DNA of 61,092 bases, from the NCBI GenBank assembly GCA_027451585.1, contig DAIDIZ010000044.1, forward strand, positions 1-61,092. Reading direction: 5' to 3'. This DNA comes from Chlamydiota bacterium (GTDB lineage Bacteria; Chlamydiota; Chlamydiia; Chlamydiales; SM23-39). Positions 53,799 to 56,700 of the stretch are shown here, in pieces (the first letter of the stretch is position 1; each line of letters starts with the position of its first letter). The position numbers were made by a program, and so were the translations under genes. The notes under the pieces were generated by a model. It was not told the DNA's origin and made no database searches. It saw only the letters and a list, made by a program, of their open reading frames with translations.

Positions 53799-56700
53799 AT
53801 GACACATAAAAAAAGAATCTATCGCTCCATTCTATTCTTCTTCGGGCTCTTCTCTGCTCATTTTTCTTTTGCTGAAGAAGCCTGCTCTTCTATCAAAGAA
53901 GGATATACGATCAATTACAACACTGTTTCAATCATTGAATACATTCATTTTGCAAGCAAGATTTGCAATACGAATTTTATTTATAATAAAGACGAACTCA
54001 ATTTTACAGTCTCCGTTGTCTCTGACGCACCGATCACACCAGAAAATGTGCTAGCCACCCTCGTTCAAGTTCTCCGGATTCACGGTTTGATGCTCTTGGA
54101 ACAAGACAATAACCTGGTCATTCATCGATCACCCGACGTGAAGCAAATCGGCAAACTTGTCACAGAAAAAAATCAGGAGGGGAACTCTCCGATTGTGACA
54201 AGGATCTTCCGCATTGCATATGCAAAACCCGACTCGGTTGCGGCTGTGATTCGTCCGATGATTTCATCTGAAGCGATCTTAGAGACACTGCCAGAAACAA
54301 GACAACTCATCTTGTCTGATGTTACGGTCAATGTCGACAAAGTGGCGTCTCTTATTGAAATTCTCGATTCTCCTCACGCGCCCCTCCAAATCAAAAGTTT
54401 TGATGTGACCAACGGACGAATTGAGACGATCATCGATATCGCAACCCAAATCATGACGCCTCTCACACAAGGCAACCCGTTCCTCATCGTCCCCCAACTC
54501 CTTGCTAATCGTGTCTTCATCGTCTCAACACCGGAGCTCGTTGATAAAGCATTGGAAATCTTGAACGATCTCAATATCCCTCCGCAGCAGGAAGAAAAAG
54601 GGCAAAAAAAGATTTCTCCTGAAAATGTATTTGTCTATAAAATTGAGCACCGCTCAGGAACCGATATCATCTCGAGTCTGCATTCAATCGCAGATAATAT
54701 CGCCCGCTCTGGAGTCCCTGAGGGGGATCTTCTCGAAACGATCAAAACAGCTCACTTTGTGCCTCAGACCAATTCAATCTTCTTTTCGGGGTCTTCTCAT
54801 TCCTTGAGCAAAATCAAAGAGATTCTCGCCTCTTTGGACACTCCGATGAAGTCCGAGGGCTCTGATTCCACAAGAGTGGGCCAAAGCAACTTCTTCATCT
54901 ACAAACCGAAATACCAAAAAGAAGAGGCGCTTCTCAACGCAATCCGAGAAGTAACCGATGATTTGAAAAAAAATAAGTTCTCCGAGCCTTCTTTTCTTCA
55001 AGCCTTGCAAAGTTTAAAATGGATCAAAACAAATAATTCGTTTTTGTTTACCGGCGAATCAGATGCGATCAAAAAAGTGGAAGAATTGGTCGTTTCTCTC
55101 GATCGAGAAGGAGTTGAAGAAAAGAAAAATCTTCGCCCTAACTATTACATTTATAAACTCCAACACACCTCAGCCGATGTCATTGAAGAGGATCTTGACA
55201 ACTTGGTCAAGAGTTTCAAAGCTTCTGGAGTCAAAGATAGTCGACTGATCCATGCAATTGAAAATATCCGGCATGTGAAAGAGACTAACTCGTTTCTCAT
55301 TACGGGGGATCCTCAAATCGTCGATGAAGTAAAGCAGTTGTTGACCGACTACGACTACCCTCGAGCCTCATGTAAATCAGCCCAGAGCAATTTCTTGATG
55401 TATAAGCCGCAACACGTTTCGGCCAATCAGATGGAAAAATCGCTCAAAGAGGTTTCGACAAATTTTAAAAAAGCAGATCTGGCCGATCCCAACCTTCTCA
55501 CTGCGATTGAATCGATCAAATATATCGAAGCGACCAACTCTCTTCTTTTTACAGGAACTCCCGACGCGCTGCAAAAGCTGCAGATCTTGATCAAAGATAT
55601 CGATAACCAAGGTCAAACTACTTCTCCGATCCAGCACTTAGGAAAAATCTCGTTTCTTCTTTACAAAATAAAACATGCAAACGGAACTCAGATCTTAGCC
55701 TCGATCAAGACGATGAGTTCCGACTTAAGAAAATCGGGTGCGGCCGATAAAGAATTCATCGGAGCGCTCCAAAGTGCGAAATACATCAAAGAAACAAACT
55801 CCATCCTTTTTACCGGAGCAGAAGAGGCGCTTCAAAGAGTAGAAGCTTTTACCGCTCAATTCGATGTCCAAGGCCAATGCCCTCGCCTCGGCCCCGATGA
55901 TTGCCCCGTGGTTGCCACCAATTTCTTTGCCTATAAACCCATTTCCTTAACCGGTCCAGATCTCGAAACGATCACAAGTGATTTCGCTGATAATCTCAAG
56001 ATAAGCGGCTTGATCGACCCTGAATTTTTCACTGCTATCCAATCGATGCGCTGGGTCGAACAAACCCAATCACTCATCTTTACAGGAACTCCCAAAGCTC
56101 TCGATCAGATCAAGCAACTCATTACCTCATTTGATGTGCCGTCGAATATCCCCGTTGGATCGATGCCCAAAACCTCGAGCGAGCCCTCTATCCAAGGACT
56201 CGATAACACCAATTTCCTTGTCTATAAACTTCAGTTCCATAAAGGGGATGAAATCCAATCCGCTCTCCGACAGATTGCAAAAGACCTCATCACAACGCAA
56301 GCCACTGTAAATCAGAACCTTCTGAACTGCATTAACTCCATTCAGTGGATCCAGATCACGAACTCTTTGCTTTGTTCCGGCGACCAAGACACCCTTGCTC
56401 GGCTGAGAGACCTGATCAAGAGCCTTGACATTCCGCTCAAGCAAGTTTTCATTGAAATGCTTGTGATCGAGACTAACCTTTTGAATGCACTTGAATTTGG
56501 ACTTGAGTGGGGAGGTAAGTACAAATACAGAAACAAGTTTCAAGGTAGCCTCAACAACATCACCCCACCTCCAACAGGAGGGCCATGTGCGATTCCAGAA
56601 GTGCTCAATCAGCTCAATAACTATACACCGCAAGATCCGATGCCGGTTCTCACAAATAACATTCCATTCAATTGCGGATTTGATTTGGGGATCATTGGGC

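Follow-up and report, generated by a model that had tools for sequence, protein, structure and literature searches.

It is customary to regard secretins and injectisomes as machines whose architecture is fixed, with three or four rings in the periplasm. The window analysed here, i.e., positions 1 to 61,092 of contig DAIDIZ010000044.1 of a Chlamydiota bacterium (GenBank assembly GCA_027451585.1), raises the question of what it means when the secretin of a system for type III secretion (T3SS) carries far more domains of the ring-building type. The gene in question encodes 1203 amino acids (aa), and an earlier note had described its product as an SctC secretin in which seven additional tandem units are placed between the N-terminal N-domains and the secretin core. 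What these units are, how they arose, and whether they lengthen the periplasmic conduit is addressed in the following. In total, the protein has ten N-type periplasmic domains, namely N0, N1, N2, and the seven units.

A search against Pfam revealed the N0 domain (PF21305, 34.8 bits against a cutoff of 27), followed by eight stretches of Secretin_N (PF03958, 205.8 bits, whole-protein E 7.9e-62), which is the N-terminal order of the secretin superfamily, and a secretin domain (PF00263, 115.9 bits against a cutoff of 27.5), which places the protein in that superfamily. Matches to secretin chains in the PDB had E-values down to 1e-38 and included GspD, PilQ, and InvG. While the earlier note had located seven units of about 85-90 aa at 54621..56428 (aa 275-877), we mapped them at aa 274-884, with a length of about 85 aa each and periods of 83-97 aa (Table 1). 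The NF(F/L).YK...TNS pattern it had recognised was seen in every unit, in the form NF(F/L)xYK...TNS(L/I)xFTG...D. Pairwise identities between the units are only 21-41%, and self-BLAST of the secretin protein detected no internal repeats, the units being too diverged for BLAST; they were thus counted with a hidden Markov model of the unit. At the DNA level, no tandem repeat was found in the array, and only a stretch of about 21 nt encoding NFxxYK recurs with 71-91% identity. Based on this absence, the units are old and diverged, so that collapse or expansion during assembly is no concern at this locus. The most conserved unit is unit 7, which is 52-93% identical to its counterpart in the compared relatives.

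In regard to the fold, the mature protein was modelled with AlphaFold2 on an alignment of 63 sequences (model numbering + 25 = protein numbering). The model had a mean predicted local distance difference test score (pLDDT) of 74.6 and displayed ten N-type domains, each well folded on its own (pLDDT about 80-92), with linkers of low confidence between them. In the full and three-unit models, each of the seven units is organised as beta-alpha(18 residues)-alpha'(8 residues)-beta-beta-alpha (pLDDT 80-97), i.e., as the ring-building motif varied by a short extra helix, alpha', which is absent in N1 and N2. A separate model of units 3-5 reached a mean pLDDT of 90.3, and in a Foldseek search against the PDB its top matches, about 35 in number, were all periplasmic N-domains of secretins (E down to 3.4e-9), derived from EpsD, GspD, ExeD, XcpQ (N0-N2), and InvG. 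Global template modelling (TM) scores of this model were low, as expected, because the domains sit on flexible linkers. The whole model matched T2SS (type II secretion system) GspD chains best, with E about 2e-21, and InvG, compared next, with about 4e-14. The N-domain fold that had been proposed for the repeats is thus confirmed, whereas the number of extra units depends on the reference chosen. Since unit 7 aligns with N3 of GspD, there are seven extra units relative to InvG-type secretins (N0, N1, N3), as had been stated, but only six relative to the T2SS ancestry (N0-N3), where unit 7 is N3 itself. The core contains an insertion at aa ~896-982 (about 56484..56744; model residues 871-957) of low AlphaFold2 confidence, which has a high Pro/Asn content and little conservation in the alignment consensus, and which matches the position of the T2SS-type insertion noted in CdsC, the secretin of Chlamydia trachomatis, by Nans et al.

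The array is not a peculiarity of this genome. The 120 closest homologues all belong to uncultured Chlamydiota and have 1139-1856 aa and 6-15 units (mode 9), while complete genes from 80 species-representative genomes, including Rhabdochlamydia, Anoxychlamydiales, and Parachlamydiales metagenome-assembled genomes (MAGs), revealed 6-14. With only unit 7 and the core as query, 1.84 billion cluster representatives were searched exhaustively, which widened the range of full-length proteins; it now runs from 4 units (945 aa) up to 23 (2368 aa). In all cases, the array lies between N0-N2 and the secretin core; among these representatives, it is preceded by about 260-320 residues and followed by about 305-330. 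Comparison of domain counts across Chlamydiota, as the earlier note had suggested, therefore shows an array that is widespread outside the Chlamydiaceae, with the seven-unit window protein at the short end.

Alignment of the relatives further revealed that the units are position-specific orthologues, with unit 1 and units 3-7 recognisable at 45-93% identity. The unit order is 1-2-3-4-5-6-7 in the window protein, 1-x-x-2-3-4-5-6-7 in its nearest relatives (70-75% identical), and 1-3-4-5-6-7 in another relative; judging from these sequences, the zone in which copy number changes is the one just after unit 1. Both the lack of a DNA repeat and the orthology of the units across distant Chlamydiota lineages bear out the view that the expansion is old and maintained. 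In long arrays, blocks of neighbouring units are 70-96% identical with an exact period of 75 aa, which points to recent tandem duplication. Such runs, with an exact period of 73-80 aa, were found in arrays of 15-21 units (P0121 = L085 429-6581; P0124 = L083 7001-13786; P0024), whose unit counts could be sensitive to short-read assembly. Five further secretins of 1152-1980 aa from the search of representatives (P0235, P0251, P0262, P0263, and P0267), with cores 35-39% identical, contain only 1-2 recognisable units; their long N-terminal regions are therefore built from something else.

Directly upstream of the secretin gene we identified sctD, sctN, sctO, an sctP-like gene, and sctQ, and the same gene order was found in those related loci that keep upstream sequence and this arrangement. 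The cluster is a chlamydial T3SS cluster, and the assignment of the secretin to a T3SS, which the earlier note had made, rests on this gene context. The end of sctQ (53606) and the start of the secretin gene (53799) are separated by 192 nt, in which no gene for a Pkn5-like kinase is present, while such a gene occupies this position in L081, L083, L084, and L089.

The sctP-like gene may provide a link between array and length. Its product is hydrophilic in its N-terminal region and has a conserved domain at the C-terminus. In L083, L084, and L089, the orthologue is the first gene after sctO and shares this C-terminal domain, and all length variation falls into the Pro/Glu/Lys-rich N-terminal region. 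The gene between sctO and sctQ was measured in 33 loci, five of which were left out of the regression as the interval was not a single open reading frame (ORF). Among the remaining 28, the length of the SctP-like protein increased with the number of units by 21.4 aa per unit (r = 0.66, p = 1e-4, Spearman 0.60), a correlation that is weaker with the five loci restored (Spearman 0.41, p = 0.018). Phylogenetically independent contrasts resulted in r = 0.83 (p = 3e-8, slope 24), while SctQ length, used as a control in the same way, was flat (r = 0.17, p = 0.40). With 31 loci and two different trees, r was about 0.9 at a slope of 22-23 aa per unit, and 23/26 and 24/27 contrasts, respectively, had the same sign. 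Three extreme loci outside the sample were all within 16 aa of the prediction, namely L084 with 4 units (320 aa observed, 322 predicted), L089 with 17 units (616 and 600 aa), and L083 with 21 units (670 and 686 aa). CdsP of C. trachomatis has 283 aa, compared to 257 predicted for one unit. The ruler set comprises loci with the secretin next to sctO-sctQ; L082, L085, L086, L087, and L088, including proteins of 23 and 18 units, lie outside it, as their upstream sequence is lacking or their secretin is located away from sctO-sctQ.

The distance measured by rulers of the FliK/SctP family includes the basal body, and a longer basal body therefore needs a longer needle together with a longer secreted ruler. 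For YscP, 0.19 nm per residue is reportedly the relevant value; at this value, about 22 aa per unit correspond to about 4 nm per unit, or to 3.2 nm if the ruler is helical, with an upper bound of 7.8 nm for a fully extended chain (0.37 nm per residue). By analogy with Thermus PilQ (35 nm), the ruler length per unit would be on the order of one N-domain ring. In L083 (3346-4017), L084 (3507-4091), and L089 (4363-5100), a second, short SctP-like paralogue of 194-245 aa with the same C-terminal domain is located between the long SctP-like gene and sctQ. It occurs in lineages with a Pkn5-like kinase gene between sctQ and the secretin gene; the window has neither.

Taken together, the array probably forms stacked rings by which the periplasmic conduit is lengthened, and would thus be an evolvable length module co-tuned with the ruler. 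The secretin stalk would have been lengthened by insertion of six ring-building N-domains between N2 and N3, and the ten N-domains would most likely stack as coaxial rings in the assembled oligomer, which would make the periplasmic conduit about two- to threefold longer than that of classical secretins. Units would be gained by tandem duplication and lost just after the first one, leading to the 4 to 23 units seen across Chlamydiota, while a secreted SctP/CdsP-like ruler would change in step, by about 22 residues for each unit, and the needle would thus still reach beyond the lengthened basal body. The scaling of the ruler gene with unit number supports such a stack, and with it, indirectly, the longer conduit that the earlier note had envisaged; coaxial stacking itself, which we infer from the PilQ precedent and from this scaling, and the physical length that follows from it stay at the level of a proposal. 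It is possible, though we hold it with somewhat more doubt than conviction, that basal bodies of Chlamydiota vary several-fold, between about 35 nm and, at 23 units, perhaps over 100 nm, with secretin and ruler co-evolving at about 22 residues (about 4 nm) per ring.

Several points weigh against this explanation. The AlphaFold2 monomer has a predicted TM score of 0.31, so that domain orientations are unreliable and stacking has to be deduced by other means. With up to 26 stacked rings, periplasmic structures should approach or exceed 100 nm, and none of this size is documented in the accessible literature. The trees used for the contrasts were rough neighbour-joining trees, and one clade (L065, L072) has a short SctP for its 10 units. 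Moreover, the SctP-like proteins match no Pfam family (E <= 10), and a profile of their C-terminal domain gave a weak in-register match to aa 105-174 of CdsP (8.5 bits, E 9e-5 with Z = 1), so that the putative ruler role is argued from synteny and analogy.

The main rival to the stack is that the extra units form a flexible tether, like beads on a string, or docking sites for periplasmic partners such as peptidoglycan, a pilotin-like lipoprotein, or chaperones, in which case copy number would tune reach or valency instead of the length of a closed conduit. The linkers between the units, about 2-15 residues long and of low pLDDT, would suit a tether, and the alpha' helix, present in each unit and missing in N1 and N2, could serve for binding. 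A partner could be encoded by the conserved lipoprotein-like gene that is translationally coupled to the secretin gene and has weak tetratricopeptide repeat (TPR) matches, and basal bodies of C. trachomatis change their length by 4-5 nm on host contact, which points to flexibility. Yet a ruler scaling of about 22 aa per unit is predicted by a stack that adds length and not obviously by a scaffold for partners, and all structurally characterised secretin domains of the N1-N5 type form stacked rings. We therefore regard a tether or scaffold as unlikely, while it is the alternative that deserves most attention.

Far less probable is that the gene encodes the GspD of a type II secretion system and that the array serves this machine. 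Its best NCBIfam match is indeed the GspD equivalog TIGR02517 with 336.9 bits, which falls narrowly below the cutoff of 351.35, whereas the SctC equivalog TIGR02516 reached only 103.9 bits against a cutoff of 238.45; in the PDB, too, GspD comes closest in sequence and fold, and many homologues are named GspD or PulD in the databases. The secretin gene, however, directly follows sctQ in an sctD...sctN-sctO-sctP-sctQ cluster with synteny repeated in related loci, and separate single-unit secretins of about 40% identity, including one from a Waddliaceae MAG, seem to be the genuine T2SS paralogues. Chlamydial T3SS secretins are known to be of the T2SS type (Abby and Rocha 2012; Nans et al. 2015), and the higher score for TIGR02517 than for TIGR02516 agrees with this reported origin. 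Based on the T3SS gene context, the GspD score below cutoff, and the published origin, a T2SS function was rejected. The membership in the classical SctC family claimed in the earlier note had to be given up too; going by family scores and synteny, the window protein is a T2SS-type secretin recruited to a T3SS, outside that family. Finally, that the repeat number is an artefact of assembly or annotation, or that the array is decaying and non-functional, is hardly credible and was rejected, for although the source is a contig of an uncultured genome, some long-array relatives have near-identical units open to short-read miscounting, and the secretin gene of one relative is frameshifted, the window units are at most 41% identical in protein without DNA-level repeats, the ORF is intact, every unit folds confidently in the AlphaFold2 model, and orthologues of 45-93% identity exist in closer relatives.

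Table 1. Features of the secretin gene and of its surroundings in the window (positions on the 61,092-nt contig).
Feature	Position	Strand	Basis
Secretin gene, 1203 aa, T2SS-type secretin of the chlamydial T3SS	53799..57410	+	intact ORF; Pfam; PDB sequence matches; AlphaFold2
Candidate signal peptide, aa 1-25 (...HFSFA/EE, slash marks cleavage)	53799..53873	+	read from sequence
N0 domain, aa 38-106	53910..54116	+	PF21305, GspD-like; aa 34-261 align with XcpQ/GspD N0-N1-N2 crystal structures
N1 (aa ~132-189) and N2 (aa ~197-258), canonical beta-alpha-beta-beta-alpha	54192..54572	+	AlphaFold2 secondary structure; alignment to 4e9j/5ngi N0-N2
Unit 1, aa 274-355, first unit in relatives too	54618..54863	+	unit mapping; alignment to relatives; AlphaFold2
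Unit 2, aa 362-443, copy-number-variable zone	54882..55127	+	nearest relatives have 2 further units between unit 1 and unit 2
Unit 3, aa 446-527	55134..55379	+	unit mapping; three-unit model; Foldseek
Unit 4, aa 529-610; best Pfam Secretin_N stretch, aa 534-605	55383..55628	+	Pfam; unit mapping; three-unit model
Unit 5, aa 616-697	55644..55889	+	unit mapping; three-unit model; Foldseek
Unit 6, aa 706-787	55914..56159	+	unit mapping; AlphaFold2
Unit 7, aa 803-884, N3 equivalent, adjoins the secretin core	56205..56450	+	aligns with N3 of GspD structures
Secretin core, aa ~882 (from QVFIEMLVIE) to aa 1160	56442..57278	+	PF00263 at aa 986-1160; PDB; AlphaFold2
SctD/CdsD inner-membrane ring protein; two FHA-type cytoplasmic stretches, periplasmic PD1, PD2, CdsD_C	43741..45558	+	domain search
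SctN, T3SS ATPase	47120..48433	+	PF00006 and PF18269
Autotransporter between sctN and sctO	48611..50881	+	beta-domain at aa 480-720; beta-propeller passenger
SctO	50886..51407	+	PF16789, YscO-like, E 4.7e-37
SctP/CdsP-like gene, 380 aa	51394..52536	+	between sctO and sctQ; C-terminal domain common to L083/L084/L089 orthologues
SctQ, FliN C-terminal domain	52533..53606	+	PF01052, E 1.6e-19
Lipoprotein-like gene, 339 aa, weak TPR matches	57397..58416	+	domain search; synteny
tRNA gene	35831..35902	-	only Rfam match in the window at gathering threshold

The lipoprotein-like gene overlaps the stop codon of the secretin gene by 14 nt. Its product has a signal peptide with a lipobox (LAGC, aa 38-41) and a hydrophobic segment at aa 259-278 in addition to the weak TPR matches. 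A homologue of 41-53% identity is conserved directly downstream of the secretin gene in 7/7 other loci compared, including the Chlamydiaceae-like L081, and a YidD gene follows next in the window and in most of these seven. From these features, the protein may be a pilotin-like TPR lipoprotein partner of the secretin, presumably comparable to PilF/PilW/Tgl of type IV pilus (T4P) secretins, and we flag it as a possible missing pilotin; no pilotin is known from the T3SS operons of C. trachomatis (Nans et al.). The autotransporter encoded between sctN and sctO has a passenger that resembles the SGL, arylesterase, or lactonase families, and it is not found at this position in L083, L084, and L089.

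Multiplied N-rings in a wide periplasm, namely the six of Thermus PilQ, and an oversized T2SS-like secretin in Chlamydia are already known. What appears to be undescribed so far is a T3SS secretin with 4-23 units arrayed internally, together with the continuing evolution of their copy number and the quantitative coupling of the array to a ruler-like gene. While six rings in PilQ have been described as exceptional, this chlamydial clade possesses T3SS secretins with 7 to 26 N-type domains, in which units continue to be gained by tandem duplication and to be lost, with a neighbouring ruler-like gene scaling along. If the rings stack, this would be a natural experiment in re-dimensioning a trans-envelope nanomachine, and the relation of ruler residues per ring could be tested directly by cryo-electron tomography on cultured amoeba symbionts. 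If basal bodies do vary several-fold, many environmental chlamydiae would be expected to have a periplasm that is unusually wide or locally expanded, or an envelope layer that has gone unrecognised.

Compared with known systems, the SctP-like gene shares with the rulers SctP, YscP, and FliK a variable hydrophilic N-terminus and a conserved C-terminal domain, as well as its position between sctO and sctQ and a length that scales with the structure it would measure. Unlike these, it has no Pfam match and only a weak one to CdsP, and is a candidate ruler. The classical SctC secretins InvG, YscC, and MxiD have the same role as the window protein, as an outer-membrane ring that is joined to the SctD/SctJ rings and through which the needle passes, and share its N-domain and secretin folds, but they represent a different secretin lineage with three N-domains and about 560-610 aa. 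Closest in sequence and fold are GspD, PulD, and XcpQ, with whose structures N0-N2 and unit 7 plus core align; they possess four N-domains, compared to ten in the window protein, which is encoded in a T3SS and not in a T2SS cluster.

The nearest precedent for multiplied beta-alpha-beta-beta-alpha N-domains is PilQ of Thermus thermophilus, which serves T4P and DNA uptake. It forms six stacked rings (N0-N5), which together with the secretin domain make up a 35-nm complex in an unusually wide periplasm, and has been described as among the largest characterised secretin complexes. It differs from the window protein in belonging to a T4P machine, in having six rings versus ten in the window and up to 26 in relatives, and in the absence of the alpha' helix from its domains; neither copy-number variation nor co-variation with a ruler has been described for it.

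CdsC of C. trachomatis (CT674), which at 921 aa has the length of about 920 aa given in the earlier note, is, like the window protein, a T2SS-type secretin that was recruited to an injectisome, with its gene downstream of cdsQ. It exceeds classical SctC in size by far and is part of a basal body that is elongated, at 34 nm (Nans et al. 2015). A unique hydrophilic N-terminal domain of about 250 residues is followed by classical N-domains and the secretin domain (Nans et al. 2015), with the last N-domain ending at about residue 592 in the supplementary alignment of that study (residues 531-921). Its C-terminal ~390 aa are 32-36% identical to array-bearing relatives of the window protein. The latter has no such N-terminal extension, as its N0 starts at about aa 35, straight after the signal peptide; it possesses six extra units between N2 and N3 instead, and its locus is without a Pkn5-like kinase, unlike that of CdsC. 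The exhaustive search of representatives returned no named Chlamydiaceae sequence, and a search with a CdsC fragment obtained by optical character recognition from the supplement of Nans et al. returned only fragments. The secretin of L081, however, is 49% identical to the C-terminus of CdsC and is encoded in the Chlamydiaceae-type order sctQ-pkn5-secretin. Its gene (6900-9614) is split over three reading frames, probably by assembly indels, though it may be a pseudogene; reconstructed across the frameshifts, it encodes a signal peptide, about 85 hydrophilic aa, N0-N1-N2, one unit, and the core. Based on the published description, CdsC residues 531-921, and the frameshifted L081, the Chlamydiaceae-type secretin appears to be without the array. 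The earlier note had asked whether the array might be universal and already described in CdsC: it is common in the clade, but appears absent from CdsC of the C. trachomatis type, and no description of it was found in the searched literature. The T3SS secretin of Chlamydiota thus seems to have been enlarged in different ways, by a hydrophilic N-terminal domain in the Chlamydiaceae and by an internal ring array elsewhere.

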